The notes under the pieces are model-generated. The model saw nothing but the letters and a program-made list of their open reading frames with translations, did not search any database and had not been told where the DNA came from. This document shows positions 3,580-46,200 of a DNA stretch of 54,520 nucleotides, piece after piece (the first letter of the stretch is position 1; the number at the start of each line of letters is the position of its first letter). Source of the DNA: Planctomycetia bacterium. GTDB taxonomy: Bacteria > Planctomycetota > UBA1135 > GCA-002686595. Both the position numbers and the translations under genes were made by a program. The DNA lies in assembly GCA_046341775.1 (NCBI GenBank), contig JBKDQQ010000054.1, forward strand, positions 1 to 54,520, given 5' to 3'.

Positions 3580-4302
3580 ATGGCCTCCGGACCGGTCGTC
3601 CTCGTCGTGGGTGCGTCGCGCGGCATCGGCGCCGCCTGCGTCGCCGAGTTCACGCGCCTCGGAGCCCGCGTCCACGGCACTTGGCGCAGCGACGGCTCCA
3701 ATGCCGAGCGCTTGCAGTCGCTGCTCGGCGCGCGCGCCTGGCGCTGCGACCTCGCCAAGCCGCAGGACGCGCCGGCGGTGGTCGAAGGCGTCGTGGCCGC
3801 CGAGGGTCGGCTCGATGCGCTGGTCGTGGCGGCCGGCGACTACTTGCCCGGGACCTTGGAGGACCACGGCAGCGGGCGCATTGAGGCGCAGCTCGCCGCG
3901 CAGGTGGTCGGTCCCGCGCGCGTCTTCGAGGCCGCGCGCCCGCACGTGAGGGCCTCGCGCGGCGCGGTCGTCTTCTTCGGCGTGGCTGGACTCGACGGAC
4001 TGCGTGGACGACGCCGCAGCGCGGCCTACTGCGCGGCGAAGAGCGCCTTGCTCGTGCTGGTCCGATCCTGGTCGCTCGAGGAGGCGGCGCATGGAGTGCG
4101 CGTGAACATGGTCTCGCCCGGCGTGGTGCCGCATCCCGACGCGGACCAGGAGACCTTGGATCCGGCCATCCTCGCCAAGGTCCCGTTGCCCGGCGCGACC
4201 ACGCCGGGAGACCTCGCCAACGCGGTGCGCTGGTTGTGCTCCGCCGAGGCGCGCCATGTCACGGGGGTCGACCTGCCCGTGGCCGGCGGCTTCGCACTCT
4301 AG
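3580..4302 (+). CDS. SDR family NAD(P)-dependent oxidoreductase
   Basis: N-terminal Rossmann motif VLVVGASRGIGAA, a catalytic YxxxK (SAAYCAAK), and the typical C-terminal VNMVSPGVV. Confidence 0.85.
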   Translation: MASGPVVLVVGASRGIGAACVAEFTRLGARVHGTWRSDGSNAERLQSLLGARAWRCDLAKPQDAPAVVEGVVAAEGRLDALVVAAGDYLPGTLEDHGSGRIEAQLAAQVVGPARVFEAARPHVRASRGAVVFFGVAGLDGLRGRRRSAAYCAAKSALLVLVRSWSLEEAAHGVRVNMVSPGVVPHPDADQETLDPAILAKVPLPGATTPGDLANAVRWLCSAEARHVTGVDLPVAGGFAL

Positions 4303-4487
4303 GCCGCGCAGGCTCCGGTCGCGATCCGGAACTTCCTTCCAAGCGCGCGGACGGCAGGGCGGGAACGCGCCTCAAGGGCGCCTGCTCGACCTGCCGATGC
4401 ACTGGCGTCGGCGCACATCCCCAAGGTCTTGCCGCGCGCGAGGTTGACTCGCGCGCGCGCGGTCCTGACCATGGCGCCGCGACGAAC

Positions 4488-5381
4488 ATGGTCGACTACG
4501 GTGCGGTGCGCTTCGAGGGCGACGACGGTGGGCTCTTCGGGCCCGCCGAGATCGAGCATTTCCTGCGCACGGAGCACGAGCGGGCGCGGCGCTACAAGTA
4601 CCCGGTGGTCTGCAGCGTGCTGGCCATCGACCGCCTCGACCAGTTGCAGGATCTCTACGGCTACGAGGCGCGCGAGACCATCGTCAAGAGCGTCGTGCGC
4701 GTCGTGCGCGCGGCCATGCGCGACTCCGACCTGCTCGGCCGCCTGGCGGGCGACCGCCTGCTCGTGCTGTGGTCGCACACGAACAAGGAGACGGGCGCGC
4801 TGCTCGCCAAGCGCCTGCTGGCGGCCGTCAAGCGCCAGTCGTTCGACCTCGACGGGCGCATGCTGAAGGTGACCGCCTCGGTGGGCGTGTCGCACAACGG
4901 CGCGGAGGACGCGCATTCGTTCGACACGCTCGTCGCCGTCGCGGAGGAGGGCCTGCTCGTGGCGCAGAAGGCCGGTGGCGACCGCCACGTCGAGACCGAG
5001 CTGTACCGGCTGCACGAAGCGCGTCGACGCGGCGCCGAGGCGGTGCCCGCGCCCATGCCGGCCGCGCCGGTCGCGTCCGCGCCGGCTCCGCGCGCCAGGC
5101 CGAGCTTGTCCGACGAACTCGTCGAGCGCGACCTGAAGATCGAACTGCTCGAGCGTCGCGTGGCGAAGTTGATGGCCATGCTCGACGTCTCCGAGGAGGA
5201 GTTGCGCCGCGTGCGTTCCGCGCGCCAGGTGGACGTGGGCGTGCCTTCGATCTACCGCGAGGTGCAAGGGCTCTCCGCCGACGCGGCGCAGCACGAGCGC
5301 AAGCGCGAGATGATGCGATCGATCTTCGAAGCCAACCTCGCCTTGCGCGCCAAGGCCAAGGAAGGCGACGCGGGCGCCTGA
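4488..5381 (+). CDS. degenerate GGDEF-domain protein with a C-terminal coiled-coil tail
   Basis: GGDEF-fold blocks (ERARRYKYPVVCSVLAIDRLDQL..., KVTASVGVS, LLVAQKAGGDRHV) but the GG(D/E)EF signature reads AGDRL. The C-terminal ~110 aa have heptad-like pattern (ELLERRVAKLMAMLDVSEEELRRV). The start MVDYGAV is at 4488, in frame with ORF 4236..5381. Confidence 0.7.
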   Translation: MVDYGAVRFEGDDGGLFGPAEIEHFLRTEHERARRYKYPVVCSVLAIDRLDQLQDLYGYEARETIVKSVVRVVRAAMRDSDLLGRLAGDRLLVLWSHTNKETGALLAKRLLAAVKRQSFDLDGRMLKVTASVGVSHNGAEDAHSFDTLVAVAEEGLLVAQKAGGDRHVETELYRLHEARRRGAEAVPAPMPAAPVASAPAPRARPSLSDELVERDLKIELLERRVAKLMAMLDVSEEELRRVRSARQVDVGVPSIYREVQGLSADAAQHERKREMMRSIFEANLALRAKAKEGDAGA

Positions 5382-5465
5382 GCCCCTCCGCGTCCGCGCC
5401 GCGGACGGCGATTGCTAGACTTCCACCACCCTTACCACACGGCTCCGAGCAACCACCATTCCGCC

Positions 5466-6503
5466 ATGACCACCCCCGACGCGAAGGACAAGGGCGTCCT
5501 CTACCTGGGCATCGACCTCGGCACTTCAAGGACCTCGGTGGCCGCCAGCAACGGCGTGCGCGAGACCGTCGCCTCCTACGTTGGCTACGCCAAGGATCCG
5601 GTGGCGTTGAAGAAGCTGGGCAAGGAGACGCTCTACGGCGACGAGGCCATCGCCAATCGCCTCTCGCTCAAGCTCTATCGCCCGTTGGCGCACGGCGTGA
5701 TCCAGGCCGACTCCGATCCGGAGGGCAACATGCGCGCGGCCACCGACCTCATCAAGGAGATCATCCGGCGCGCGCGGCCCAAGGCGGACGAGCTGGTCTA
5801 CGCCGTGATCGGCGCCCCGGCCCAGGCCTCGATCAAGAACAAGCAGGCGATCCTCGACGCGGCCCGTTCGACGGTGAACTCCGTCATGTTGTGCTCGGAG
5901 CCCTTCTCGGTGGCGTACGGCCTGGACATGCTCGACGACGTGCTCGTCGTCGACATCGGCGCCGGCACCACCGACATGTGCCGCATGCACGGCACGATGC
6001 CCGAGGACTCCGACCAGATCACCAACACCTACGCCGGCGACCACGTCGATTCCAGGCTCGCGGAGCTGATCAAGTCCACCTGCCAGGGCGCGGACTTCTC
6101 GAAGGAGATGGTCAAGGCGATCAAGGAGAAGCACGCTTCCGTGTTCGACGAGATGCCGCGCGCGCTGGTCAAGCTGCCCGTCATGGGCAAGCCGACCGAG
6201 TTCGACATCACCGAGCAGGTCAAGGCCGCCTGCCGCAGCATCGTTCCGCCCATCGTCGACGGCATCCAGCAACTCGTGGCCAGCTTCGATCCCGAGTTCC
6301 AGGAGCGGCTCAAGGGCCGCGTGCTGCTCGCCGGCGGCGGCAGCCAGATCAAGGGGCTCGACCACGAGGTCGAGCGGCAGATGCACGAGCGCCTCGGCTC
6401 CGGCCGGGTGATCCGCATCGAGGAGCCCGTGTACGGCGGCGCCAATGGCGCGCTCAAGCTGGCGCACGACATGCCGGCCGAGTACTGGGAGCAGCTCAAG
6501 TAG
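5466..6503 (+). CDS. MamK-family actin-like ATPase (MreB/ParM superfamily)
   Basis: Phosphate-1 GIDLGTSRTSVAAS; VGYAKDP; VIGAPAQAS; SEPFSVAYGLDML; phosphate-2 VVDIGAGTTDMC; AGGGSQIKGL; C-terminal AEYWEQLK. From memory this block pattern matches MamK better than MreB or FtsA. The ATG is at 5466, with a TTG alternative at 5412. Confidence 0.8.
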   Translation: MTTPDAKDKGVLYLGIDLGTSRTSVAASNGVRETVASYVGYAKDPVALKKLGKETLYGDEAIANRLSLKLYRPLAHGVIQADSDPEGNMRAATDLIKEIIRRARPKADELVYAVIGAPAQASIKNKQAILDAARSTVNSVMLCSEPFSVAYGLDMLDDVLVVDIGAGTTDMCRMHGTMPEDSDQITNTYAGDHVDSRLAELIKSTCQGADFSKEMVKAIKEKHASVFDEMPRALVKLPVMGKPTEFDITEQVKAACRSIVPPIVDGIQQLVASFDPEFQERLKGRVLLAGGGSQIKGLDHEVERQMHERLGSGRVIRIEEPVYGGANGALKLAHDMPAEYWEQLK

Positions 6504-6632
6504 TCCCGCGGCGCGTCGGCGCCGGCGGCAGGAACGGTCGGCCCCGCCGGATCGGACGATCCGGCGGGGCCGATTGTCAAGTATTCCGGACGAGGCTCGC
6601 GTCGCGCGCCTGCTTGCACGCCTTCGTCCGCG

Positions 6633-8429
6633 CTACTGGCCGCGCACGCAACTGCCCAGCGCCAGGAGCGCGTAGCTCGTGGCGAGGATCGGGTTGCCCT
6701 CGTACCAGCGCGGGGAGTTCTCGTTCAGCCACGAGCCGTCGTCCTTCCGCTGGATGGCGACGAGGCGTCCGGCTAGGTCCTTGCGCCACGAGCGCGACTC
6801 GCCGCGCGCGTCGACGATGTTCGCCTCGCCCGCCACCTCGAGCGTGCGCGCCATCGTCGAGAAGTAGTAGAAGAGGCCTTGGAACGCCGCCGAGGGATCC
6901 TCCGCGGCCTCGAAGCCGGGATTGACGTCGAGCGTGTAGTTGCGCCGCAGCCATTCGGATGCCGCCTTGACGCGCGGGTCGTCCTTCGGAACTCCGGCGA
7001 AGATGTAGCTCTTCAGGAGCGCGTAGGTCATCGACCCGTAGCTGCGCGGGATCTTGCGTCCGCCCTCGAGCTCGATGTAGCCGGCCATGCTCTGGCCCGG
7101 CGCGTAGGCGGAACCGCCGTCGTCCCCCGAGACGACCACCTTGCCGCCTTCGGGGATCCTCACGTCGTTGCGTTCCGAGCGGTTCTGGCAACGCTCCAGG
7201 AAGCGCAAGCTGCGCCGGAACGCCTCGTGGTCCTTGTCGAGTCCCGAGACCGACAAGGCCTCGAGCGCCATCTGGAGGTTCGACAAGTCCGGGCGTTCCG
7301 ACGAGCCGTAGCCGATGCCGCCGTAGTAGGGATGGTCCTCGGCGTAGTCGTCCTCGGGACCCAGTTGCAGCGCCACGAGCCAATCGCGAGCGCGCAGGAG
7401 CGCGGCGCGGTGGGACTCGCGCCCATCGGCCGCGAGCGCCATCACCGCCGCCGACGTGACGTAGTTGGCGACCTTGCCCTGGTGGATCGATCCATCGGGT
7501 TGCTGGAGGGAGACGAGCCAGGCGAGGCCGGCGTCGATCGTCGCCTGCACGCGCGGCTCGCGCGGCATCGGCGTCGCGAGCAGCGCGCCCAGCGCCATGG
7601 CGGTGATGCCCGCGTCGGGCTTGCCGGGCTCGCCCCACTTGCCTTCGTTGGCGATGGAGACGAGGAAGCGCGCACCTCCGGCCAAGGCGTCGAGCGCGGC
7701 TTGCTTGTCGGCCGGTTCGAAGGCGGCCAGCGGCTTGGCTCCCTTGGGGCCGGCGGCCGCCGGCTTGAGCACGGGGGCGGCGCGCACGAGCAGCACCGCC
7801 GCCTCCGCCGTGGCGCGCGCGGACCCGTCCCAGGAACCGTCGCTCCTGCGCTTGGAGAGCAGGTCGGTCGCGAGCTTGCGCACCGCCGCGCGCGACTCCG
7901 GCAGCGGTTGGTCGCCCCACGGCTCGGCCGACGACGCCTCGCCCAGGTGCTTGAGCGCCGCGCCCAAGGCGGCCTTGTTGGACTCGCTCGCGTGCAGCGT
8001 CAACGCCGCCGCCGCGAGGCGCGTCTGGCGCGTGCGATCCGCGCCGCTCGCGCCGGCGTCGGCGATCGATCCGTCCGGCGCCTGCCGCGCGACGAGGTAG
8101 TCGAGCGCGCGCTGCACGAACGGCCCGTCGATCGCCTGGTACTTGCGCGGGGACTCGCGCAGCGCGCGCAGCGCCAGCGCCGTGGTCGCCACGTCGGGCC
8201 CGTAGCCGCCGCTGTCGCGATCCTGCGCGTAGCGCAACCAGCGCAGCGCCTTGTCGATGTCCGGACCGAGGTCGAGCGTCGAGTCGACGCCCGCTTGCAC
8301 GGCCCCGGTCGCGGCCGGCCCCGTCGTCGTCGCGGGCGGAACCGCGGGCTGCGACCCTTGGTTGGAACGGGCCGTGGTCGCGAGGCAGGCGAGGAAGGCG
8401 ATCCCGCAGAGGTGGCGAAGGTTCGTCAT
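6633..8429 (-). CDS. secreted prenyltransferase/squalene-oxidase-repeat (alpha-alpha toroid) protein
   Basis: Signal peptide MTNLRHLCGIAFLACLATTARS. Repeated QxxDGSW/DGS motifs (RQAPDGSIAD, SKRRSDGSWDG, LQQPDGSIHQG, IQRKDDGSWLN) are typical of terpene-cyclase/prenyltransferase beta-subunit repeats. Confidence 0.7.
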   Translation of the reverse strand: MTNLRHLCGIAFLACLATTARSNQGSQPAVPPATTTGPAATGAVQAGVDSTLDLGPDIDKALRWLRYAQDRDSGGYGPDVATTALALRALRESPRKYQAIDGPFVQRALDYLVARQAPDGSIADAGASGADRTRQTRLAAAALTLHASESNKAALGAALKHLGEASSAEPWGDQPLPESRAAVRKLATDLLSKRRSDGSWDGSARATAEAAVLLVRAAPVLKPAAAGPKGAKPLAAFEPADKQAALDALAGGARFLVSIANEGKWGEPGKPDAGITAMALGALLATPMPREPRVQATIDAGLAWLVSLQQPDGSIHQGKVANYVTSAAVMALAADGRESHRAALLRARDWLVALQLGPEDDYAEDHPYYGGIGYGSSERPDLSNLQMALEALSVSGLDKDHEAFRRSLRFLERCQNRSERNDVRIPEGGKVVVSGDDGGSAYAPGQSMAGYIELEGGRKIPRSYGSMTYALLKSYIFAGVPKDDPRVKAASEWLRRNYTLDVNPGFEAAEDPSAAFQGLFYYFSTMARTLEVAGEANIVDARGESRSWRKDLAGRLVAIQRKDDGSWLNENSPRWYEGNPILATSYALLALGSCVRGQ

Positions 8430-8588
8430 GGCATCCAGATCTAGCCTCTCCGTGGTCGGGCGCACGCGCCGATTCGGCAAGACTTGTGCAGGCAGGAGGG
8501 TAATGCGCCCGCCGGGGGGGTCAAGGCGGCCGCCCTGGCGCGTCGCGGTGGGGGGGCGCGCTCGCGCGCGGATGGGGCTCGCGGCCCT

Positions 8589-15122: not shown

Positions 15123-15776
15123 TCAGAGGATGTCTTCGCGGTAGATCCAGCCCTTGCGGTCGGGCGCGCCGCGCGCCACGAGGCGCCACAGGTGCTCCGG
15201 GCCGACGACGGCGAGGTACTCGCGCTCGCCGTCGCGCGTTTGCAGCAGGATGCGGCCGGAGACCAGCCCGACCAGGCGCTTCTCGTGCTCGCGCTCCTCG
15301 GGCACGACGAACACGCCCGCCCCGATGTACTCCGGATGGCCGCGCAGGCGGTCGGGCACGGTGGTGACGAGTCCGAAGACGCGCGGGTCTTCGAGGACCA
15401 CGACCTTCTCCTTCCACGGACCCGCGGCATCGCGGCCGTGGATCCACAGCAGCTCGCCGGCCTTGGGCGAACGGAACTCGAGCGTGCAGTCCGGCAGGCG
15501 GATCTCGGTCGAGGCGGTGTACACCGGGCCTCCGACCGGTTCGATCACCACCTTTTCGATGCTCGGGCCGTCGCCGAACCACGAGGTGACCTCCGCGGGC
15601 CCGGAACGCGCCGAGCGTCCGAGGAACACGAGGCCGTAGTCGGTGCACACGCCCAGTTCCTCGCCACCGGTGGTCTTGATGTGCACCACCGGGTCGGAGA
15701 TGGTCCGGACACCCGTGCAGGCGCCGAGGAAGGGCAGGGCGAGAACGAGGGCGGCGAGGGCTGTGCGCTGGATCAT
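15123..15776 (-). CDS. hypothetical lipoprotein
   Basis: Lipobox MIQRTALAALVLALPFLGAC. 217 aa. The ATG overlaps the upstream gene's stop (ATGA). Confidence 0.6.
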   Translation of the reverse strand: MIQRTALAALVLALPFLGACTGVRTISDPVVHIKTTGGEELGVCTDYGLVFLGRSARSGPAEVTSWFGDGPSIEKVVIEPVGGPVYTASTEIRLPDCTLEFRSPKAGELLWIHGRDAAGPWKEKVVVLEDPRVFGLVTTVPDRLRGHPEYIGAGVFVVPEEREHEKRLVGLVSGRILLQTRDGEREYLAVVGPEHLWRLVARGAPDRKGWIYREDIL

Positions 15777-17443
15777 TCGAAGCGTTCGTACCACGTCCGA
15801 TAGTAGTCGTTCTCGGGGTCGAGCTCCATCGCCAACCCGGCCCAGCGCTTGGCCTCCTCGTCGCTGAACTTCGACGCGTCGCCGTCGGAGACCTCGATGC
15901 CGCCGCCACCCGCGCCACGGCCGGTGCGCGTGTTGAGCCGGCCGACCTTGAGGGCCGACAGGTCGTAGTACACGTCCGCGTCCAACGGATCGAGCTCGAG
16001 CGCCTTGAGCAGGTCCGCCCGGGCCTTGGCCTCCGCGCCGGAGAACGCATTGGCCTTGGCGCGGCCCACGAAGGCGCGCGGGTCGGTCGTGCCCAATTCG
16101 ATGGCCGCGTCGAAGTCGGCGAGCGCCTCGTCGAGCTTGAACCCGCGCAGGTTGCTCAAGGCGCGCTTGAGGCGCGCCGTCGGGCCTTCGATGGGGATCT
16201 GCTTGATGTAGTCGATCCACAGCGCCTCGAGCTTCTCGACGTCCTTCTCGCCGATGCGCTTCAAGAGGTGCGCGCGGATGTCCTCGGGCTTCACGCCGAA
16301 GCCGCCGCCCATCGCCTCCGAGGGGATGCCCTTGGCGCGCGTGTAGATCTCCTTGAAGAAGCGGTTGAAGTTCTTCTGGTGCTTGGCGCCTTCGTAGGTG
16401 TTCAGGAAGTACACGAAGGACCATGCGTGCGCGTACTCGAAGCCGTCGAACGCGTTGCGGTCGAGCTTGAACATCGTCTCGAGCTTGGTGTAGCCCCGCC
16501 CACCGCGCCGCTTCTTGGCCTCGCCCGTGGCGGCTTGCGAGCCTTGCGTCACGCCGATCGCCTCCTGTACCGTCAACACGCGGTCGAGCTGGGGCTCGCC
16601 GGGCTCGATCACGAGCTTGCCCTTCTTGTCGCGGTAGACCTTCGAGCTGCCGTAGTAGTCCGCCACGGCTTCGTTGAGCCAGATCTGCTCCTCGTACTGC
16701 GGATCGATCAAGTACGTCAGGAGGTGCGTGCACTCGTGCAGCGCGACCCAGGTCGATTGCTCGGGCTCCTGGTAGTCGTGGTAGAAGTTGAGCGTCTTGT
16801 CGTACGCCCAGAAGTAGCCGAGCGTGCCCGGCCCCAAGTCCTCCGCCGCGGCGTTGGCGTGGAAGTCGTCGTAGGACTTGTAGATGTTGACGACCATCTT
16901 CGTGCGCATCAGGGACGGCGTCGGCTTGATGCCGATGCGGTTGTCCATGAGCGCGTAGTACGTCTCCAGGAGTTCGGCGTAGTAGTCGAGCAACTCGGTG
17001 CTCGTGTTGGTCTTGAAGACGAAGTGCTGCGTCTCCTTCTCCCAACCCGCGCCCCAGGTCGAGCGCGCCTTGATCTCCTCGATGCGCTTGGCGGCGGCGG
17101 CTTGCTCCTTGGCGCGCTCCGCCTCGTAGGCGGGCTTCGACCACCATTTCGAACGGTACCGCACGAAGCCCTGCGCGAGCTTCTCCTCCTCGTCCTTGTT
17201 GGCCGGGACGTAGTCGCTCATGTCGCCTTCGACCTCGATCGAGCGCACGAGCGAGCGGTCCTTGACCACGATCTCGCCGCCGGTCTCGAAGGTCAGCTTG
17301 ATCTCGCCGCCCGCCTCGCGCGCCTTGGCGGGCGTCACGACGCGACCATCCTTGGTCACGATGCGGTCGGCCAGCGCGTTCGGCGCGCACAGGAGGAGGA
17401 TGAAGGCGGCGCCGGCACTGGCGGCGAAATTCGTGTGTCGCAT
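15773..17443 (-). CDS. secreted HExxH-motif protein with C-terminal TPR repeats (DUF1570-like putative metallopeptidase)
   Basis: Signal peptide MRHTNFAASAGAAFILLLCAPNALA, motif WVALHECTHLLTYL, and a C-terminal TPR-like region (ALADFDAAIELGTTDPRAFVGRAKA...). Confidence 0.7.
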   Translation of the reverse strand: MRHTNFAASAGAAFILLLCAPNALADRIVTKDGRVVTPAKAREAGGEIKLTFETGGEIVVKDRSLVRSIEVEGDMSDYVPANKDEEEKLAQGFVRYRSKWWSKPAYEAERAKEQAAAAKRIEEIKARSTWGAGWEKETQHFVFKTNTSTELLDYYAELLETYYALMDNRIGIKPTPSLMRTKMVVNIYKSYDDFHANAAAEDLGPGTLGYFWAYDKTLNFYHDYQEPEQSTWVALHECTHLLTYLIDPQYEEQIWLNEAVADYYGSSKVYRDKKGKLVIEPGEPQLDRVLTVQEAIGVTQGSQAATGEAKKRRGGRGYTKLETMFKLDRNAFDGFEYAHAWSFVYFLNTYEGAKHQKNFNRFFKEIYTRAKGIPSEAMGGGFGVKPEDIRAHLLKRIGEKDVEKLEALWIDYIKQIPIEGPTARLKRALSNLRGFKLDEALADFDAAIELGTTDPRAFVGRAKANAFSGAEAKARADLLKALELDPLDADVYYDLSALKVGRLNTRTGRGAGGGGIEVSDGDASKFSDEEAKRWAGLAMELDPENDYYRTWYERFE

Positions 17444-17448
17444 GCTTG

Positions 17449-19053
17449 TCACTTGGAGACGATGTAGTCCTTCCACGATTCCGTCAGCGCGTCCATGTCG
17501 ATGCCGCGGAAGGCGTCCTCGACCGCCTGGTTCAAGTTGCCGGTCATCGCCAGCGTCTTGAAGTACGTGTCGAGGATCTTGTCCCAATCGGCGTTCCAGT
17601 TCTTGGCGCCCTTCTTCTTGCCTGTGCGCAGGAAGTAGATGAAGGACCATCCCTGCGCGTAGTTCTGGAGACCGCCGGCGCCGTACTTGTTCTGGCCGTA
17701 GTACTCCTGCTGCGTGAAGCGCACGAGGTCGGTCAAGGGCACGAATCGGTTGTCGCGGATCAGTTCGCGGACCGTGTCGACGCGCCAGACGGCCTTGGCT
17801 TGCTCGAAGCGTCCCCCGTACCACTTGTATCCGGAGTAGTAGTCGCCCGTGCCTTCGTTGTACCAGCTGTGCGGACTGATGTTCCCGTACAGGTAGAAGA
17901 TGTACTGGTGGAAGGCCTCGTGGTTGAGCACGAGCCAGGTGTCGTTGCGCCCGCCGCCGGCCTGATCGTCGTAGATGACCAGCTCCTGCTGCACCCACGC
18001 CCAATACCCTGCGCTGCCGCCGGGGCCGCCGTAGCTGTGGTAGGCGTCCTGGTCGGTCAGGACCCGCACCACCGAGCAGCGCGACAGCTCGCGCGGATCC
18101 GCGTCCCCGAGGATCTGCTTGGCGAGCTCCGCTTCGCCGGAGCGCTCGCGCTTCTCGGCGTCGGAGCCCGTCTGCAGGCCTTCGCCCGCCTTGCGCAGCT
18201 CCTGGGCCTTCTCGTAGGGGTAGTCGATCTCGAATTGCTTGCGGATGGCCTCGAGGCGTTCCTGCAGCTCCTTGACGAATAGCTTGTCCTTGTGCGGCGT
18301 GAGGATGAAGTAGTTCGGCGTCTCGTAGAGCTTCCACTCCCCGCCGAGCTTGGCGACCTCGGTCTGCAGTTGCGCGCGCTTGCGCGAGCGCACATCGTCG
18401 CCCTCCGCCGCCGCCAGCGCCTTCACCGCCACCGGCGCGAAGCTCTTCGCCATCTGGTCGAACGGACCTTCCCACTTGGCGGCCTTCTTCGGATCGCCGG
18501 GATAGACAGCCACGAACGCCACATCGACGCTTTCGTGCAGCTTCCAGCTCCACGCCTTGATCCAGCCGCCCTCGCCCGTGTCGTCGAGCCCCGACCACTC
18601 GTACACCTTGGCGGGCACCTTGTTGATTGTCGTTTCCTTGGGAGCACCCTGCGACTTGTAGGTGCGTCCGTACTCGGCCGTCACCCACGCCACCACATCC
18701 TTGCGGCCTGGACCCGACAGGTCGATCTTGGGCTTCTTGTCGTCCCCCTCGCTCTTGGGCTCGTCCTTCTTGCGGCGGTCGAACTTGACGAGTTGCGCGT
18801 CGATGTAGAGGGGCTTGCCTCCGACGAGCACGTACTTCTCCAAGGGCGGCGTGAACTTGGCGATCAGGTTCGGCTCGCCCGGTTGCGGCGGGATCAGGTC
18901 CCAATCCGCCGGCGTCTTGATCTTGAAGCCCAGGTCGACGGAGTCCTCGTAGTACTTGCCGACCTTCGGGGCCTGCACCTGCGCCGCAGCGGGCAAGGCG
19001 ATCGTCGCCAGCAGGGCGAGGAGGATCCACCAACGCGCCAGCGTGGCGCGCAT
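17449..19053 (-). CDS. secreted HExxH-motif protein, paralog of the adjacent gene (DUF1570-like)
   Basis: Signal peptide MRATLARWWILLALLATIALPAAAQ, motif WLVLNHEAFHQYIFYLYG. It shares blocks with the downstream paralog (HAWSFVYFL vs QGWSFIYFL). It sits 5 bp upstream of the paralog. Confidence 0.7.
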   Translation of the reverse strand: MRATLARWWILLALLATIALPAAAQVQAPKVGKYYEDSVDLGFKIKTPADWDLIPPQPGEPNLIAKFTPPLEKYVLVGGKPLYIDAQLVKFDRRKKDEPKSEGDDKKPKIDLSGPGRKDVVAWVTAEYGRTYKSQGAPKETTINKVPAKVYEWSGLDDTGEGGWIKAWSWKLHESVDVAFVAVYPGDPKKAAKWEGPFDQMAKSFAPVAVKALAAAEGDDVRSRKRAQLQTEVAKLGGEWKLYETPNYFILTPHKDKLFVKELQERLEAIRKQFEIDYPYEKAQELRKAGEGLQTGSDAEKRERSGEAELAKQILGDADPRELSRCSVVRVLTDQDAYHSYGGPGGSAGYWAWVQQELVIYDDQAGGGRNDTWLVLNHEAFHQYIFYLYGNISPHSWYNEGTGDYYSGYKWYGGRFEQAKAVWRVDTVRELIRDNRFVPLTDLVRFTQQEYYGQNKYGAGGLQNYAQGWSFIYFLRTGKKKGAKNWNADWDKILDTYFKTLAMTGNLNQAVEDAFRGIDMDALTESWKDYIVSK

Positions 19054-19300
19054 GGGCGAAGGTCGGGGATGGGTGCGCATGAGTGCGGAGAGGGGGCGAG
19101 GGTGTCGGCGCGGGACGATTCTCGCGCGCGCAAGCCCACAGGGCATCTACGCGGCGTGGCGGGCTTCCTTGCCACCCTCATCAGACCCGCCGGGCACGGC
19201 TCGTCGCAAGTCCCCGCGGGGGGACGCTTGCACAGGACTTTCCGCCGTGGGCAGGCAGGCGGTGCCGTTCCCCTCGGAGGTTTTGCACAATGGTCGCACG

Positions 19301-22300
19301 ATGAACTCGAAGATCTTGATCGGAGTGGCGCTCGTGGTGGTCGCGGGGGGTGCTTTCTTCCTCTTCAAGCCCAAGGATGCCGCCCCGGATGCCCCGCGGG
19401 CCATCGAAGCCGTCGCCGAGGACGCTGGGCCGGACGCGCAGCGGCCGCCGGCCGAGCTGGACGCTCCCGAATTGGCCGAGACCGACTCCGTGGGCGACGC
19501 GCGCTCCGTGGTGGCGACCGAGGGCGAGTCCAAGCCCGCTGCGGCGACGCCCAAGAAGTCGTCGGAACTGGTGCTCCTCGGGCGCGTCGTGGACGAGTCC
19601 GGTGCTCCTGTCGCCGGAGCCGAGGTCAAGGCCGCCGCGGCGCAGGGCGGTCCCGAGTTCGGGCTCGACGAGATCGACGCCGACATGTTCGGCGGTTGGA
19701 TCGTGGTCGATTCCGCCACGAGCGGCGCTGACGGTCGCTTCGAATTGCCATTGCGGCGCAAGGCCAACACCGTCCAGTTCGCGGCGCGCAAGGCCGGCTT
19801 CGCGCCGCTCGAACAGCGCTTCGACGTCCAACCCGGCCGCCACGAGGTGGGCGACGTGCGCCTGGCGCGTGGCGCGGTGGTCGCCGGCCGCGTCGTCAAT
19901 TCCTCTGGACGCGGAGTCGCGGGCGCCGCCGTGCACAGGAAGCGCGTCGGCGGAGACATGATGGCGCAGTTCAACCCCTTCCCCGGACCGGTCGTGGCCA
20001 CGACCGACGCGGCGGGCGCCTTCGTCGTCGACCAGCTCGCCATCGGCGACTACAAGCTGGTCGTCAAGCATGCGGAGCATCCGGACGGGGCCCTCGAGGG
20101 CAGCACCAGCCAAGGCTCGGAGCGCATCTCCGGCCTCGAAGTGCGCCTCGCCGACGGGGCTGCGATCATGGGCGTCGTCTCCGGCCTCGAAGGCAAGTGG
20201 ACCGAGGACCTGCGCGTCGCCGCCACCAAGGCCGGAGGTGGAGCCTTCGGCATGCCCGACTTCACCGGCGGCCGCCGCGCCAAGGTCGACAAGGACGGCG
20301 GCTTCCGCATCTCGGGCTTGTCGGCCGACACGAGCTACCGCCTCGCCGTCGTGCGCGGGGACAAGCCGAACATGACGCAGATGATGGGCGGCCGGCGCGG
20401 GCGCGACGGCGTCGAGGCCAAGAGCGGCGATGTCGGCGTGCGCGTGCCGCTCGTCGACGAGACCGCGCTCGTCGGCCAGGTGGTCGACGCGCGCACCAAG
20501 GCGCCGTTGACGCAGTTGCGCGTCGAGGCGGGGCGCGGTTGGCTGGTCCCCTTGGCGGACGAGAAGGGCAAGCCGCAGTCGAACTTCCCCGAAGGCCGCT
20601 TCCGCCATGCCAACCTCGTGCGCATGGGCTCCGGCGGCAAGCTCGACCTGAAGGTCGTGGCCGACGGCTACCGCACCTTCGAGCAGAAGGGCATCGAGGT
20701 GCCCGACGGCGCCACCACCGACATCGGCGTGATCGAGCTCGAGCCGGCGCCCCTGGCGCGCGTCGTCGTGCTCGACGCGACCACGCGCCAACCCGTCGCC
20801 AACGCCAAGGTGAACCTCGAGGTGCTGCGCGACGAGCAGGACGGCAACCGCGTGTTCGTCTCCGGCGGCGACGACGACGACGACGGAATGCCGATGATGC
20901 CGAGCGGCGAGACGCGCACGGGCAAGTCCGGGGCCGACGGCGTCGCCATGGTCGCGATGGAGCCCGGCAAGCGCATGCGCGCCGTGGTGCGCGCCAAGGG
21001 CCGCGCCGAATGGACCGGCACCGCCTTCGTCGCGCCCGCCGACGGCGAACAGTCGATCGAAGCCCTGCTGGTCGAAGGCGGCACCGTGGTGGTGAAGGTC
21101 GTCGACACGAGCGGCGCGCCCGTCCCCAAGGTCGCGGTCGAGCGCGAGGAAGACGACTCGGGCGTGCAAGTCTTCGCCATGGGCGGCGACCGCAAGACGA
21201 ACTCCAAGGGCGAGCTCGAGTTCAAGAACCTCCTGCCCGGTCCGCAGCGCTTCCGCGTCAAGGATGGCGGGATGTTCGGCGGCGCGCGCATGGGCCGCGC
21301 CCGCATGGCGCGCAACGCGGGTGCCGACGGCGCCGCGCTGTTCGACATGGGGGGCGACGAGGAACCACAATGGTCCAGCGTCGAGGTCGCCGACAAGGGC
21401 CGGCACGAAGTCGTGCTGGTCGTTCCGGCGCGGGCGACGCTGGTCGGTGTGGTGCGCGAAGGCGGCAAGCCCGTGGCGGGGTTGCGCGTGAAGGTGTCGG
21501 ACGGCGACGACATGGAGTTCGGCTTCGGCGGCGAATCGGGCGCCAAGACGGACGCCGATGGTCGCTTCGAGTTGGCCGACGTCGAGGCGGGCAAGCAGAA
21601 GCTCGTCGTCAGCGGCCCGCGGCGCGCCATGAACCATGAACAGGAGATCGAGATCTACGCCGGCGACAACAAGGTCGAGATCGACCTGCCTTCGGCCACC
21701 ATCGAAGGTCGCGTCGTCTCGGTCGACGGAGCGCCGATGGCAGGCGCGAAGGTCAAGGTCATGCTCGCGCCTGAAGGCTCCTTCGAGTCCGCCGCGGTCG
21801 AGTTCGCCGCGGTCGTCGCCTTCGACGGTGGAGATGCGGAAGGCGGCGTGATGGAGTTCGGCGCGGGGCAGGGCAACGCCGCCACGACGGATGCGCAAGG
21901 CCGCTACACCTTGCGCGGCGTGCGCGCGGGCGCGAAGCTCGTCGTCGAGGTCAAGGCCAAGGATTGCCAGCCCAAGCGCGGCGAGCCCTTCGAGCTGGCG
22001 ATCGACGAGGCGCGCACAGGCATGGACTTCGTGGTGCAGCCGGGCTGCACGCTCGAGGTGTCCTTGCGCAGCGCCGACGGCCGCCAGCGCGGCTTCTTCG
22101 CGCGCGCGGTGAAGCTCGACGACAAGGGCGACGAGGGCGCCGAGCAGTCCTCGCAGTTCGCCCAGCGCGCCAGCACCAAGCTGTCCGGGCTCGCGCCCGG
22201 CCGTTGGCGTGTCACGGTCAATCCGGTGTCCTTCGGCGAGGAGGACGGCGGGCAGGACGAAGACCCCGCGCCCAAGGAGATCGAGTTGAAGGTCGGCCAG

Positions 22301-22327
22301 AAGAACGAGCTGGTCTTCGACGGCTGA
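19301..22327 (+). CDS. large membrane-anchored protein built from carboxypeptidase-regulatory-like (CarboxypepD_reg) repeats
   Basis: N-terminal TM anchor MNSKILIGVALVVVAGGAFFLF and an acidic linker. There are at least 7 repeats of the G(R)VVD..GxPVAGAxV....TD..G.F type (LLGRVVDESGAPVAGAEVKA, VAGRVVNSSGRGVAGAAV, LVGQVVDARTKAPL, IEGRVVSVDGAPMAGAKVKV ...TDAQGRYTL). No catalytic domain is recognisable. Confidence 0.7.
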   Translation: MNSKILIGVALVVVAGGAFFLFKPKDAAPDAPRAIEAVAEDAGPDAQRPPAELDAPELAETDSVGDARSVVATEGESKPAAATPKKSSELVLLGRVVDESGAPVAGAEVKAAAAQGGPEFGLDEIDADMFGGWIVVDSATSGADGRFELPLRRKANTVQFAARKAGFAPLEQRFDVQPGRHEVGDVRLARGAVVAGRVVNSSGRGVAGAAVHRKRVGGDMMAQFNPFPGPVVATTDAAGAFVVDQLAIGDYKLVVKHAEHPDGALEGSTSQGSERISGLEVRLADGAAIMGVVSGLEGKWTEDLRVAATKAGGGAFGMPDFTGGRRAKVDKDGGFRISGLSADTSYRLAVVRGDKPNMTQMMGGRRGRDGVEAKSGDVGVRVPLVDETALVGQVVDARTKAPLTQLRVEAGRGWLVPLADEKGKPQSNFPEGRFRHANLVRMGSGGKLDLKVVADGYRTFEQKGIEVPDGATTDIGVIELEPAPLARVVVLDATTRQPVANAKVNLEVLRDEQDGNRVFVSGGDDDDDGMPMMPSGETRTGKSGADGVAMVAMEPGKRMRAVVRAKGRAEWTGTAFVAPADGEQSIEALLVEGGTVVVKVVDTSGAPVPKVAVEREEDDSGVQVFAMGGDRKTNSKGELEFKNLLPGPQRFRVKDGGMFGGARMGRARMARNAGADGAALFDMGGDEEPQWSSVEVADKGRHEVVLVVPARATLVGVVREGGKPVAGLRVKVSDGDDMEFGFGGESGAKTDADGRFELADVEAGKQKLVVSGPRRAMNHEQEIEIYAGDNKVEIDLPSATIEGRVVSVDGAPMAGAKVKVMLAPEGSFESAAVEFAAVVAFDGGDAEGGVMEFGAGQGNAATTDAQGRYTLRGVRAGAKLVVEVKAKDCQPKRGEPFELAIDEARTGMDFVVQPGCTLEVSLRSADGRQRGFFARAVKLDDKGDEGAEQSSQFAQRASTKLSGLAPGRWRVTVNPVSFGEEDGGQDEDPAPKEIELKVGQKNELVFDG

Positions 22328-22522
22328 GGTCCTCGAGGCGCCGCGCGCGGCCGCGTTGGTCCGGGGGCGCCCGGACGAGCCGGGCCGGCGCGGAGTTCCC
22401 GGGCCCGCAAGTGGTGGATCCGACCCTGCGGGCTCCACTTGCGGTCCGGCCTGCGCGCCAAATGCGGTCCCGCTGGGCCCAAGGCTTGGCTTTGCCCGCC
22501 GGAGTTGCTTTCCTCGCGTACG

Positions 22523-25500
22523 ATGAAGGCCTCGGGTGGCGCGCGCGTGAAGAATCGTCTGGTCCTCGGATTCGTCGCCGTGGCCGGCCTCTTGGCTTGG
22601 CTGTACTTCGCCCGTGGCGCGAGCGAGGTGCGCGCGCAGACCGTCGAGGCGCTCGAACTGGGCGAGGGCGAGGGTGATCTAGGCGCGGAGTTGTCCAACA
22701 CCGAATCCTCCACCGCTCGCGATGCGGCGGAGACGCCGCAGGACCCGTCGTCGTCGGAATCCTCGTCCACCGCGTCCGTGGTGCCGGCGGGCAAGGCGCG
22801 CGTCCTTGGTCGCGTGGTCGATCGGCAAGGTCGTGCCGTGGTCGGTGCGCGCGTCATCGCGGCCCTGGGCGACAACTGGTACGCGGTGCCGATCGACGCG
22901 GAACGCGACCTCCTCGAACGCAGCCAGATCGAGACGATCGAGACGCGCACGGACGGCGAGGGGCGCTACGACTTCGGCGACATCCAACCCGGCGCGGCGC
23001 GGCTGTGCGTGCGCGCCGCGGGCTTCGGCCCGTGGTACGGAACCGGCGAGACCTTGCCGGAGGGCGTGGAGACGCGCCTCCCGGACGTGGTGCTCGACGC
23101 CGGCGTCGTCGTGCGCGGCAAGGTCGTCGATCCGCGCGGGACTCCGGTGGCGGGGGCGACGGTGCTGGTCGCCTACGACTGCATCCGGCGCAAGACCAAG
23201 CTCGTGCTGCCCGGACGCGGCGCGCCTGTCGCGACCACCAACGCCGATGGCGAGTTCGTCGTCGACCAGCTCGCGCCGGGGGCTTGGCACATCTACGGCG
23301 ACGATGGCGTGCACTTGGCGGGCGAGGCGCGCGGCGAATTGGCGCGCGCCGGGCTCGAGCAGGGCGGCGTGCGCATCGAGCTGGGCGAGGCTTGGCGCAT
23401 CGTGGGCAAGGTCGTGCCCAAGGCCGGGGCGTTGCCCGCCGGGCTGCGCGTCTCGGCGCGGCTCGTCGAGGAGGGCCAAGGGGATCGCCGCCAAGAGGAG
23501 CAGGACGACGCCTGGGCCTTCTCCAGCACGCGCGTCGAGCGCGCCGACGATCCGGCGCGGTCCCAAGCAGCATCCCGCGTGCGGCACGCGCTGGTCGACG
23601 CCCAAGGCGCGTTCCAACTCGGCGCCCTCGTGCCGAGTCGCAAGTACCGACTCGGCCTCGCTCGTCCGCGCGCCGACGGCAAGGGTTGGCGCGCCGTCTC
23701 CACCGAGGAGCTGAAGCCCGTCGAGGCCGGCGAGCGCAACGCGCTGATCGAGCTGCGTGCGGCGACGAGCCTCGTCTTCAAGGTGGTCGACGATGCCACC
23801 GGCGCGCCGATCGAGGATCTCTTCGTGTGGGGCGGCCAGGGCCGCGAGCGCGTGCTGCGCGACGACGCTGGCAAGCCCGTCGCCAAGTTCGGCGGCGGGG
23901 TGGTCGAGTGGCCCGAGTTGCGCGTGCAGTCGGGCGGCAAGCCGTTCCAATTGCGCGTGGCGGCCACCGGTTACAAGGACCACGAGGCGCGCAACCTCGC
24001 CGTGCACGCGGGGCGCGTGAACGACCTGGGCGAGATCCGCCTCGCGCCGACCTCGGTCGTCGAGGCGTTCGTCTACAAGGAAGGCACGCGCGACCTGGTG
24101 CCCGGTGCGCGCGTGATCCTCGCCGACCGCTCGGAGGAGGACTTGCGCGGCATCTCCGAACGCGGCGTCGGAGATGACTTGACCTGGGACCCGCAGCTGA
24201 AGCACGCGATCGCCGACGACAAGGGCATGGCGCGCCTCACGGCTCCGGCGGGCAAGCACACGGCGTTGCAAGCCAGCGCCAAGGGCTGCGTGCCCGGGCC
24301 GGTGGTGCGCCAGTTGATCGCCGAGGAGGGCGTCACCAAGGTCGAACTGTTCGTGCGGCTCGGCGGGGTGGTCGAGGTCGTCGTCGACGATGGCGCGGGC
24401 AATCCCGTGCCGCGCCAATCGATCCAGCACATGCTGCCCCCCAAGCCCGGAGAGGGCGACGAGGAGTGGGGCGAATCCCTGCGCACCGACGACAAGGGCG
24501 TTGCGCGCTTCGAGGGCCTGGTCGAGGGACTGCACAAGTTCCGCGTCGAGAAGGAGCAGGGCAACGTCTGGACCTGGGGCGAGGTCGAGGCGCAGGAGGA
24601 GCCGTGGTCCGAGGCGCGCGTCGCTTCGGGCGAGCTCGCCACCTTGCGCCTGCGCGCCAAGCCGCGCGGCTCGCTGGAAGGCGTGGTGCGCGAGGATGGT
24701 CGACCGCTCGCCGACGCGGCAGTGCGCCTCGTGCCCTACAACCCTGACATGACCAACGGTTGGGCCGGCTGGAGCGGCGAGGACGATCCGCTGCTCGCCG
24801 TGTGCGACGACGAGGGTCGCTACCGCTTCGAGAGCATCCCGGTCGGGACCTACCGCTTGTTCGTCACGCACGAGCTGCGCCGCCACGCCAAGGAGTTCCG
24901 CGCCGACGTGCACGGGCTCGGCAGCCGCCAGGACCTCGACCTGATGGTCTCGAGCGTGGCCGGACGGGTGCTGGACGACGAAGGCAGCCCGCTCGCAGGA
25001 CTCGAGGTCCATTTGTGGGTCGACGGCGAGCGCATCGAGGTCGAGCCGCCGTACAAGCTCGTCTACGAGGAGGACGAGCGCGGCGGCGGCGACGTCGACT
25101 GGAAGGAATCCGCCGCGGCCAGCACGAAGACCGACGCCTCCGGCGCGTACATCATGCGCGGCGTGCAGACCGAGGCGGGTCTGACCGTCGTGGCGCAGGG
25201 CCGTTGGACGGAAGAGGGGCGCATCGGACCCTTCACGCTCGTCGATGGCGAGGTGCGGCACGGCGCCGACTTCAAGCTGCGGCGCGCCGGCGACATCGTC
25301 GTGCGCCTCGAGGCGCCGATGGCCGACGACGAGCTGGTGCACGCGCACCTCGTCAAGCAGGATGGCGCCGGGCAGTTGCGGCGCGACTTCGCGCTCGGAA
25401 GGTGGAACGACCGCGAGCGCCTGCGCGGATTGATCCCCGGCGAGTGGAAGCTCGTCTACCAGCGCCACGGACCCGGCGGCCCGCAGGGCGAGCCGCGCGA

Positions 25501-25558
25501 AGCGACCATCGTCGTGCAGGTCGGGCGCGAGGCGCGCCACGCCATCCAAGGCCTCTAG
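22523..25558 (+). CDS. large membrane-anchored CarboxypepD_reg-repeat protein, tandem paralog of the preceding gene
   Basis: N-terminal anchor MKASGGARVKNRLVLGFVAVAGLLAWLYF and a Ser/Glu-rich linker. Repeats include VLGRVVDRQGRAVVGARV...TDGEGRYDF, VVRGKVVDPRGTPVAGATV...TNADGEFVV and VAGRVLDDEGSPLAGLEV...TDASGAYIM. Confidence 0.7.
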   Translation: MKASGGARVKNRLVLGFVAVAGLLAWLYFARGASEVRAQTVEALELGEGEGDLGAELSNTESSTARDAAETPQDPSSSESSSTASVVPAGKARVLGRVVDRQGRAVVGARVIAALGDNWYAVPIDAERDLLERSQIETIETRTDGEGRYDFGDIQPGAARLCVRAAGFGPWYGTGETLPEGVETRLPDVVLDAGVVVRGKVVDPRGTPVAGATVLVAYDCIRRKTKLVLPGRGAPVATTNADGEFVVDQLAPGAWHIYGDDGVHLAGEARGELARAGLEQGGVRIELGEAWRIVGKVVPKAGALPAGLRVSARLVEEGQGDRRQEEQDDAWAFSSTRVERADDPARSQAASRVRHALVDAQGAFQLGALVPSRKYRLGLARPRADGKGWRAVSTEELKPVEAGERNALIELRAATSLVFKVVDDATGAPIEDLFVWGGQGRERVLRDDAGKPVAKFGGGVVEWPELRVQSGGKPFQLRVAATGYKDHEARNLAVHAGRVNDLGEIRLAPTSVVEAFVYKEGTRDLVPGARVILADRSEEDLRGISERGVGDDLTWDPQLKHAIADDKGMARLTAPAGKHTALQASAKGCVPGPVVRQLIAEEGVTKVELFVRLGGVVEVVVDDGAGNPVPRQSIQHMLPPKPGEGDEEWGESLRTDDKGVARFEGLVEGLHKFRVEKEQGNVWTWGEVEAQEEPWSEARVASGELATLRLRAKPRGSLEGVVREDGRPLADAAVRLVPYNPDMTNGWAGWSGEDDPLLAVCDDEGRYRFESIPVGTYRLFVTHELRRHAKEFRADVHGLGSRQDLDLMVSSVAGRVLDDEGSPLAGLEVHLWVDGERIEVEPPYKLVYEEDERGGGDVDWKESAAASTKTDASGAYIMRGVQTEAGLTVVAQGRWTEEGRIGPFTLVDGEVRHGADFKLRRAGDIVVRLEAPMADDELVHAHLVKQDGAGQLRRDFALGRWNDRERLRGLIPGEWKLVYQRHGPGGPQGEPREATIVVQVGREARHAIQGL

Positions 25559-29042: not shown

Positions 29043-29175
29043 GGTCGAGGGCGCCCGTGCCGTCGGCGTTTCACGTCCGCGTCGTTGGCGCGCGCGGCGA
29101 CGACGGTGCTCCGCCGCCGCCGCGCGCGCTTCGATGGGGCGTCGCGTCGCGGCGGCGCGACGCCCCTCCGGCCGA

Positions 29176-30780
<1,605 letters not shown>

Positions 30781-30841
30781 GGTGGGGGATTCGCGTGCGG
30801 GTTCGTGGTTCTGGTTTGCGTGCTGGTGCGGGCGGGCCGGA

Positions 30842-32506
<1,665 letters not shown>

Positions 32507-38974: not shown

Positions 38975-39118
38975 CGCTTCGTCCGCCACTCGCGCCCGCG
39001 CACGCCGCGGGCGCCTTCGTTGGAATCCGCCGTCTCGCGGCCGCGCGGCGAGCCCCGCATGCCACGCGCCGCGCTCGCGCCGCGGGAGGCGCTCGCGCCG
39101 GTGCTATACTCGCCGACG

Positions 39119-40921: not shown

Positions 40922-40997
40922 GCCGGGCGCGCCTTTGCGCGTCGAGCCCGGCGACTGTATCCTCGCGCCCCGCTCGCCCGGGTGGGCGATGCGGCGA

Positions 40998-41070
<73 letters not shown>

Positions 41071-41261
41071 CTTTCCTCGCCTCGCGGCAACCTTGATCGG
41101 CGTGCCTGCGCCTCGCCTCGGGCCACGCGCGCCGTCCGTCGGCGGTCCGCCTGGACTCCTCGAGCGGCGCCAGCGTCGGTTGACGGCGGCATGGGCTCCA
41201 CGCCGCTTCCGCGCCCGCTGCGCGATCGCGGGTTGGCGCGTACCATCACGAGCCCGCATCC

Positions 41262-46098: not shown

Positions 46099-46200
46099 GG
46101 AGTGCGGTGGGGGCGTGGCTTCTTGAGGATCGCTTCGGGACTCGGGCGCTCGCGGGGTTCGCGCCTTTGCGTGCGTGCAGGCGCTCGCGCGCGACTGCCG

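Follow-up and report, generated by a model that had tools for sequence, protein, structure and literature searches.

A MamK-family actin gene and a degenerate GGDEF gene form a conserved pair in Planctomycetota

Introduction

We begin with a question raised by one stretch of planctomycete DNA: what is a MamK-type actin doing directly downstream of a gene for a cyclase-like protein with a degraded active-site signature, and do the two products act together? The stretch (contig JBKDQQ010000054.1 of assembly GCA_046341775.1, from a Planctomycetia bacterium; 54,520 nucleotides, called the window below) carries the two genes on its plus strand. Gene 1 (4488-5381) encodes a protein of 297 residues and gene 2 (5466-6503) one of 345 residues. 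A reading made from the letters of the window only, here called the sequence-only reading, had placed the two genes at these positions with a gap of 84 nt, and both the coordinates and the gap prove correct. It had also proposed that the actin forms filaments which are positioned or regulated by the upstream protein, as a use of a MamK-like cytoskeleton outside the magnetosome.

A relative of this actin has already been given a name. The shape-shifting Saltatorellus clade carries a MamK-like second actin, called saltatorellin, which as an mCherry fusion assembles into filaments when expressed in E. coli or in a mamK mutant of Magnetospirillum (M. gryphiswaldense), and for which a role in shape change and amoeboid movement has been proposed (Wiegand et al. 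2019, bioRxiv 10.1101/817700). Planctomycetes of this clade are reported to change shape, to crawl and to fuse; saltatorellin is the proposed motor, and the gene pair bears on how that motor is controlled.

Results

Does the arrangement exist outside the window? A scan for the actin, with one genome taken per species, gives 411 loci, and the neighbourhoods of 80 of these 411 are analysed. All 80 come from metagenome-assembled genomes (MAGs), the 77 that carry a taxon in their title are Planctomycetota, and the closest locus (L001, actin 97% identical to gene 2) again belongs to a "Planctomycetia bacterium" MAG. By tblastn, a homologue of gene 1 is found immediately upstream of the actin gene and on the same strand in 80 of the 80 loci; the actin sequences of these loci differ from one another by 27% on average. 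Measured to the position that matches the start codon of the window's actin, the distance from the end of the partner open reading frame (ORF) runs from -7 to 281 nt, and it lies between 13 and 281 nt in 78 loci. The pair is also present on a 2.3-Mb contig (L081) with independent gene calls, where a 346-residue GGDEF protein and a 344-residue protein of the MreB_Mbl family are 4 nt apart.

The surroundings of the pair change from locus to locus. None of the other window genes is met again in more than 10 of the 80 loci; among them are those for an ABC-2 permease, an M24 peptidase, a signal peptidase, an SDR protein, a prenyltransferase-like protein, YbjQ, LpxB and an extracytoplasmic function (ECF) sigma factor. 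When all flanking ORFs are clustered in an unbiased way, the largest family that remains once the pair and its antisense shadows are set aside is present in 13 of the 80. We conclude that the actin and the pseudo-cyclase almost certainly form a conserved two-gene module with changing surroundings. The two-gene module that had been suggested from the tight spacing in the window is kept in every related locus analysed and in the independently called contig.

To which family does the actin belong? On the NCBIfam model for the MamK family actin-like protein (NF040964), gene 2 (5466..6503, plus strand) scores 413.5 bits (E = 5.9e-124, profile positions 1-330 of 335), so that by profile it is a member of the family, with a score barely over the cut-off of 400 bits. 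The scores on the other models are 193.5 bits for BeeR (cut-off 530), 77.4 for MreB (cut-off 293), 31.9 for FtsA and 14.2 for ParM, and Hsp70 is also far lower. A sequence search of the PDB agrees with the profiles. The MamK structures 5LJW, 5JYG and 5LJV come out on top (259 bits, E = 5e-76), followed by BeeR (8R2N, 124 bits) and MreB (1JCE, 55 bits). The sequence-only reading had called the protein MamK-type rather than MreB, FtsA or ParM and had proposed a profile search against MamK, MreB and ParM models as the check; the MamK model is passed, profile and PDB scores alike favour MamK, and the FtsA and ParM scores are negligible.

Gene 2 and MamK (5LJW) are 39.5% identical over 337 aligned positions. 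The nucleotide-binding motifs, DLGTSRT, SEPF, DIGAGTTD and GGGSQIKGL, are intact and aligned with those of 5LJW, and E145, within SEPF, is the equivalent of MamK E143. The blocks from which the MamK type had been recognised (VGYAKDP, SEPFSVAYGLD, VVDIGAGTTDMC, AGGGSQIKGL and AEYWEQL) are all present in the translation. More than 3,700 database proteins match gene 2 at E < 1e-20. The best 120 are 69-92% identical to it, and all those among them with an organism name are from Planctomycetota MAGs. The family is very large, and its members occur widely in MAGs from ordinary lakes, soils and groundwater. At NCBI its members are labelled "MamK family actin-like protein" or "rod shape-determining protein".

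The relation to saltatorellin deserves a closer comparison. Both proteins are MamK-like, both come from non-magnetotactic, deep-branching Planctomycetota, and both genomes have about 70% GC (Saltatorellus-clade genomes, 70%, PMC11032199; the window, 64-77% in 2-kb windows and 70-73% across most of its length). The reverse primer used to clone saltatorellin of S. ferox encodes YWEQLK followed by a stop, which is the C-terminus of gene 2, whereas the N-termini differ (MTDITTD in the primer, MTTPDAK in the window). Saltatorellin of S. ferox, sought by these primer sequences among the retrieved proteins and loci, is not found there. We infer that gene 2 encodes a saltatorellin-type protein. The preprint does not mention an upstream GGDEF-like gene anywhere in its text ("GGDEF" and "diguanylate" have zero occurrences).

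We turn to the upstream gene (gene 1, 4488..5381, plus strand), in whose product a linker joins a degenerate GGDEF domain to a conserved helical tail. Its start is taken at the ATG at 4488, inside an ORF that spans 4236-5381, and the consensus of its homologues begins at the same start (M..F....F.....GLF.P.EIE); for gene 2 the ATG at 5466 lies inside the ORF 5412-6503. Pfam GGDEF (PF00990) covers residues 21-165 (E = 8e-19). An AlphaFold2 model built with 48 homologues has a mean predicted local distance difference test (pLDDT) score of 80; in the GGDEF-fold domain (residues 20-170, 4545..4997) the mean pLDDT of ten-residue blocks is mostly above 90, with 82-87 in three blocks. Foldseek matches this head in the PDB to DosC, PleD, SiaD and other cyclase GGDEF domains at a root-mean-square deviation of 1.4-2.4 A, with target TM-scores of 0.82-0.88 to isolated GGDEF-domain chains.

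The fold is retained and the active site is not. In HMMER alignments AGDRL (A87-L91, 4746..4760) stands opposite the GGEEF of SiaD (7E6G) and of the Marinobacter cyclase (3IGN) and replaces the GG[DE]EF signature. The same alignments give substitutions at the GTP-binding positions, where PleD has K, N, D, K and R and gene 1 has D51, Q54, E63, Q160 and G164. These positions we take to be K332, N335, D344, K442 and R446 of PleD. Cyclase activity of the gene 1 product is very unlikely, because AGDRL replaces GGEEF and the positions that bind GTP and metal are substituted. Among the 75 partner sequences in the family alignment, none has GG[DE]EF anywhere in the sequence; the position reads x-[D/G/E]-D-R-[L/I/V] and occurs in 47 different five-residue versions. 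By this comparison the degeneracy is ancestral to the partner family and not a sequencing error. The equivalent of the first metal-binding aspartate, D48, is kept in 68 of 72 partners, and D89 in 50 of 75. Pfam, AlphaFold2, Foldseek and the alignments thus agree with the first description of gene 1 as a GGDEF fold with an AGDRL signature; that it is catalytically dead agrees with the lost substrate-binding residues and with its homologues, and a sequencing error over an intact motif, which would have undone that description, gives way to a family trait.

In gene 1, RDSD (R78-D81, 4719..4730) lies at the canonical distance of five residues before the GGDEF position and aligns with REYD of SiaD and RQSD of 3IGN, so that the RxxD inhibitory site is formally intact in the alignment. 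An RxxD site of this kind binds cyclic di-guanosine monophosphate (c-di-GMP) both in enzymes of the PleD type and in receptors, PopA among them. It is kept in 42 of the 75 partners (56%), the window copy included, and c-di-GMP sensing can be proposed only for the subfamily that keeps it. The sequence-only reading had offered a c-di-GMP receptor or adaptor; the site stands in the window copy, and the idea does not extend to the family as a whole.

A separate gene of the window touches the same messenger. At 34154-35092 on the minus strand, a 312-residue GGDEF protein has an intact GGDEF motif (RLGGDEF) and a RAED inhibitory site and is, judging from these motifs, probably an active cyclase. The organism probably makes c-di-GMP, because the window holds this intact-motif protein. 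It had earlier been called a c-di-GMP-linked response regulator: the GGDEF motif agrees with the c-di-GMP link in that name, and the N-terminal 139 residues give no Pfam receiver match at E <= 0.001.

What is conserved in the partner, if not its active site? The head is joined by a Pro/Ala-rich linker (residues 186-206, 5043..5105), with pLDDT below 55, no secondary structure, and a length and sequence that vary across the family, to a C-terminal tail of three parts. Tail helix 1 (39 residues, 207-245, 5106..5222) is predicted by AlphaFold2 as a helix at pLDDT 86-92. Its consensus is I-[D/E]-x-LERR-[I/V]-AKL...L..TE.EL.R, with R224 and L228 invariant. Across the 75 sequences the hydrophobic occupancy is 0.74 at the a and d positions of the heptad and 0.13 elsewhere, a clean heptad periodicity such as a coiled coil shows. 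The loop that follows (23 residues, 246-268, 5223..5291) holds DVGVPSIYREVQGL and is the candidate binding motif. Its consensus is D-x-G-[V/I/L]-[A/S]-S-[I/V/L]-[Y/F]-[R/K]-x-V-Q-G-L (in short, DxGVASIYRxVQGL); G251 and S254 are found in 73 of 73 sequences, V259 in 73 of 75, and Q260 and G261 in 72 of 75. In the model of isolated gene 1, residues 251-262 have pLDDT below 50, and such predicted disorder is as expected for a motif that folds on a partner. Tail helix 2 (27 residues, 269-295, 5292..5372) is a predicted amphipathic helix with the consensus K-[K/R]-x-M-M-x-x-I-F-x-A-N-L-x-L, in which N283 is kept in 75 of 75 partners and F280 and K272 in 71 of 75 each. Its hydrophobic face (275, 276, 279, 280, 284, 286) is not a clean heptad repeat.

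The tail had been described as a coiled coil of about 110 residues (residues 186-297). The coiled coil is there as a heptad helix of 39 residues, and the remainder is a 20-residue linker, the loop and the amphipathic helix; in the alignment the most conserved element of the tail is the loop motif and not the coiled coil. The mean pairwise divergence (1 - identity) is 0.52 in the tail versus 0.66 in the GGDEF domain, by which measure the tail is under strong and the head under relaxed constraint.

With the tail (94 residues) as query, phmmer was run exhaustively over 1.84 billion representatives; 767 clusters match at E <= 1e-3, and 219 of these reach E <= 1e-10. Among the 150 best matches, all but one (P0296) have the tail within about 30 residues of the C-terminus, and the 96 matched proteins longer than 260 residues are all 260-400 residues long but for three. 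The tail is found in each of 59 diverse full-length representatives (the window protein included), Pfam GGDEF in 30 of them, and no other domain in any; the strongest GGDEF score among the 59 belongs to the window copy. Searched against PDB and Pfam, the tail profile yields generic coiled-coil similarity of helix 1 only, and the loop and helix 2 find no match. As far as these comparisons reach, the tail has no known relative family.

Can the pair be followed as a unit when it duplicates? Sorted by inhibitory site and motif, the 75 partners fall into type A, which keeps RxxD (42, with the window's), type B, with SGDRI and RxxG (11), type C, with F.../TE... (11), and others (11). About ten MAGs contribute two loci each, and in seven of them both partners are complete: L042/L051, L052/L055, L037/L063, L053/L071, L034/L068, L057/L058 and L065/L080. 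In seven of seven, one module is of type A and the other of type B or C, so that one has RxxD and one does not. The two actins of a double-module genome are 74-83% identical. The nearest actin relative shares the partner type in 65 of 75 cases. Contamination of MAGs could be the source of some double modules; the consistent pairing of an A with a non-A module argues that the pair was truly duplicated as one unit and that the copies then diverged together. A mirror-tree (Mantel) comparison of actin and partner distances gives r = 0.74 with the tail and 0.44 with the GGDEF domain; it is not counted as evidence, since it is explained by shared species phylogeny.

Discussion

How would such a pair work? 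We lean, by a modest degree, towards a dedicated cytoskeletal module of Saltatorellus-type Planctomycetota that consists of an actin and its cognate binding partner; the label "Saltatorellus-type" is drawn from GC content, phylum labels and the preprint. The gene 2 product would be an ATP-dependent, filament-forming actin, as filaments are reported for the S. ferox homologue. The two genes are presumably co-transcribed, for which the lack of a terminator-like site in the spacer is a weak argument. The partner would dimerise through the heptad helix 1 of its tail, and the loop and helix 2 would pass from disorder in the free protein to a fold on an actin monomer or filament. With a confidence that only just tips beyond even, we expect the two proteins to bind each other through this tail. 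Such a contact could let the partner nucleate, bundle, cap or anchor the filament, while regulation or docking would fall to the GGDEF-fold head.

That c-di-GMP is an input to the module is a more tentative proposal, which we consider possible and somewhat doubtful. For a type A partner, the subtype of the window, c-di-GMP at RxxD might couple filament behaviour to the second messenger. The idea can be carried further: in Saltatorellus-type planctomycetes a pseudo-diguanylate-cyclase would act as a cognate actin regulator, c-di-GMP at the type A RxxD would switch nucleation, bundling or anchoring of saltatorellin filaments, and within one cell a second, c-di-GMP-blind module of type B or C would support a constitutive set of filaments. 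We regard this full scheme as speculative and, as it stands, rather unlikely. If it were true, the second messenger of the sessile/motile decision would be tied directly to shape-shifting and amoeboid movement.

Several observations weigh against this picture, in whole or in part. Two close relatives, L002 (1011-1799) and L003 (438-1223), are the only partners that have lost the loop motif (GVASIYRxVQGL), and they retain the gene pair; both are lake MAGs with an actin 82% identical to the window's, and their partners retain both tail helices and RDSD. RxxD is absent from 33 of the 75 partners, so c-di-GMP sensing is not the common function of the family. The correlation between actin and partner distances (r = 0.74) is confounded by shared phylogeny. 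YWEQLK or a near variant is common to much of the family and to MamK, and is for that reason weak evidence of saltatorellin identity; the equation of gene 2 with saltatorellin of S. ferox draws only on clade, GC content and this six-residue C-terminus. Finally, a model of the fused chain (gene 1, the translated spacer without its stop, and gene 2) has a predicted template modelling score of 0.53 and a loop pLDDT below 50, with no gain of confidence in the loop, where the alignment behind it (MAFFT, unpaired) was faulty, having placed 39 of 41 partner tails on the actin half, so that the model is uninformative either way.

The alternative that survives best is that the two genes are co-transcribed and their products serve the same process without touching. 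The partner would then be a general signalling or scaffold protein, and its tail would have another target, for instance the membrane, a landmark at the pole, or the machinery of pili or flagella. Adjacency alone is no proof of contact, the tail has no recognisable actin-binding homology, and the fused chain, for what its faulty alignment allows, gives no sign of docking. However, the adjacency is universal and exclusive despite the divergence of the actins, with all other neighbours changing, and the pair duplicates as a unit while actin clades follow partner types, a behaviour typical of cognate binding partners. We consider a lack of contact unlikely, though more probable than the other alternatives.

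A second alternative borrows the layout of type II (ParM/ParR-like) segregation, in which the actin would push or pull DNA or some other cargo, with the upstream protein as the adaptor. An actin-like ATPase with one small dedicated adaptor is the classic layout of ParMRC, AlfAB and Alp7AR, and MamK itself positions cargo. Against this, the partner has no DNA-binding domain, only GGDEF-type matches in Pfam and NCBIfam; the DNA upstream of and between the genes holds no centromere-like iterons, only short two-copy chance repeats; the ParM score is negligible; and the adaptor would lie upstream rather than downstream. The surroundings in the window are, moreover, those of chromosomal housekeeping (signal peptidase, SDR, LpxB, GroEL). 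Such a system is improbable here.

Gene 1 could also still be an enzyme of altered chemistry, for example a nucleotide cyclase of a different kind, or an NTPase as in the GdpP GGDEF domain, and would form or break down a nucleotide that affects the actin. Weak matches to GGDEF_GdpP and GGDEF_2 and the frequent retention of D48 and D89 speak for it. At all other catalytic and substrate positions, K, N, E, K and R have given way to D, Q, R, Q and G; these positions vary freely across the family, and in half of the diverse members Pfam fails to recognise a GGDEF domain. This is the relaxed pattern of a non-catalytic domain, which makes the alternative very improbable. The weakest candidate, a remnant or variant magnetosome system whose actin organises magnetosomes like true MamK, has in its favour the MamK-family score, the identity to MamK and the magnetosome genes reported for some Planctomycetota (PMC7449369), and is scarcely credible given that no mam-type domain occurs in the 35 window ORFs scanned with Pfam (in line with the earlier remark that the window has no other magnetosome genes), that the 80 loci have no further conserved neighbour, and that the family is so large in ordinary lake, soil and groundwater MAGs. 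An anti-phage defence system was tried as well and rejected, with no PADLOC match for the partner and a noise hit only for the actin.

A non-magnetosome MamK-type filament with a pseudo-cyclase partner, as the sequence-only reading had put it, remains the best reading: the actin does not fall to MreB or FtsA, the upstream motif is not intact, and the pair is conserved in related genomes, while the interaction itself is inferred. How does this module compare with the systems that are known? Among solved structures the nearest is MamK of Magnetospirillum (5LJV, 5LJW, 5JYG), which shares the nucleotide-binding motifs and uses a dedicated, partly disordered partner, MamJ, to link to its cargo. The present module differs in having no magnetosome cluster and a score barely over the MamK cut-off, and its partner has the GGDEF fold where MamJ is an acidic repeat protein. 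BeeR, the three-stranded tubular actin of Verrucomicrobiota (8R2N; PMC11929497), is likewise MamK-related, non-magnetotactic and from the PVC superphylum, but gene 2 reaches 193.5 bits against a BeeR cut-off of 530 and lacks the long disordered N-terminal domain that defines BeeR.

In ParM/ParR, AlfA/AlfB and Alp7A/Alp7R, too, an actin-like ATPase and one cognate adaptor make up a two-gene unit. Their adaptors, which attach to the filament by a short element at the C-terminus, are small DNA-binding proteins with genes downstream and beside centromere repeats, whereas here the partner gene is upstream, with neither a DNA-binding domain nor such repeats. On the side of the partner, PopA of Caulobacter, PelD of Pseudomonas and SgmT of Myxococcus combine the GGDEF fold with an active site that is dead; several of these proteins bind c-di-GMP at a retained RxxD, and this binding controls localisation or partner binding. 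CdgA of Bdellovibrio is reportedly a degenerate GGDEF protein at the invasive pole (PMC3983030). The gene 1 family shares the fold and the dead site with all of these and differs in that only 56% of its members have RxxD. We know of no protein of the PopA, PelD, SgmT or CdgA type that is the dedicated operon partner of an actin or that carries this C-terminal tail, and the literature search shows none.

What is apparently new, then, is one half of the module. The actin half is already known, from the saltatorellin preprint and from the MamK-family naming at NCBI. For the other half, a literature search, with many subscription papers outside its coverage, finds no description of the actin/GGDEF-like pairing or of the partner. 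The evidence points to a dedicated and so far undescribed partner of this cytoskeletal filament. It would be, to our knowledge, the first case of a GGDEF-fold protein recruited as a dedicated partner of a bacterial actin. The module thereby joins two known kinds of arrangement, an actin filament with its cognate adaptor (as in ParM/ParR and MamK/MamJ) and a dead GGDEF domain reused as a receptor or adaptor. For the control of saltatorellin the partner offers three things open to mutation and assay: the protein itself, DxGVASIYRxVQGL as the candidate motif for binding, and RxxD as the candidate site for a ligand. With no fewer than 767 representative clusters, the family is also a well-sampled case in which the fold of a signalling enzyme has decayed to a structural or regulatory domain. 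The NCBI names mislead about function on both sides, "MamK family" or "rod shape-determining protein" for the actin and "diguanylate cyclase" for the partner.

Other features of the window

The presumed promoter region of the two-gene unit (4303..4487, plus strand) comprises the 185 nt from the stop of the SDR gene (4302) to the ATG at 4488, its promoter role being an assumption; neither a sigma-70 consensus nor iteron-like repeats are detected in it. A promoter and terminator scan of 4100-6800 finds none upstream of or between the two genes, where planctomycete promoters may deviate from the consensus. The spacer (5382..5465, 84 nt), which holds no terminator-like or promoter-like site, happens to keep both genes in one reading frame: 5379-5465 reads as a single TGA and 28 sense codons (APPRPRRGRRLLDFHHPYHTAPSNHHSA). 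Programmed read-through or fusion of the two genes is rejected, since spacing and frame vary among the other loci, and the shared frame is probably chance.

Downstream, a gene for a 615-residue protein with a weak match to squalene-hopene-cyclase/prenyltransferase repeats (6633-8480, minus strand) is convergent with the actin gene. Its homologue lies downstream of the module in only 10 of the 80 loci, so it is not a member of the module. Rfam finds two tRNAs in the window and neither a c-di-GMP riboswitch nor another RNA element. The first tRNA gene (40998-41070) has a sulfatase gene on either side (633 and 605 residues, within 39020-43079, plus strand), and the second is at 51206-51280.

The GC content falls to 0.64 at 16-18 kb, where the long ORFs 15123-17390 and 17449-19146 have no Pfam match; this low-GC region (15123-19146, minus strand) may be acquired DNA or hold lineage-specific genes. 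At 18956-25558 (plus strand) are two successive proteins of about 1,040-1,120 residues with repeated CarboxypepD_reg (transthyretin-like) domains; these large proteins are probably secreted or located at the surface. Two Cpn60/GroEL paralogues in tandem (29176-30780 and 30842-32506) adjoin a full-length DnaJ (27936-29042), all on the minus strand within 27936-32506. Further along, a 682-residue SPFH/Band 7 protein is encoded at 44502-46550 (minus strand), with the adjoining ORFs 47064-48110 and 49594-50910, neither of which has a Pfam match.

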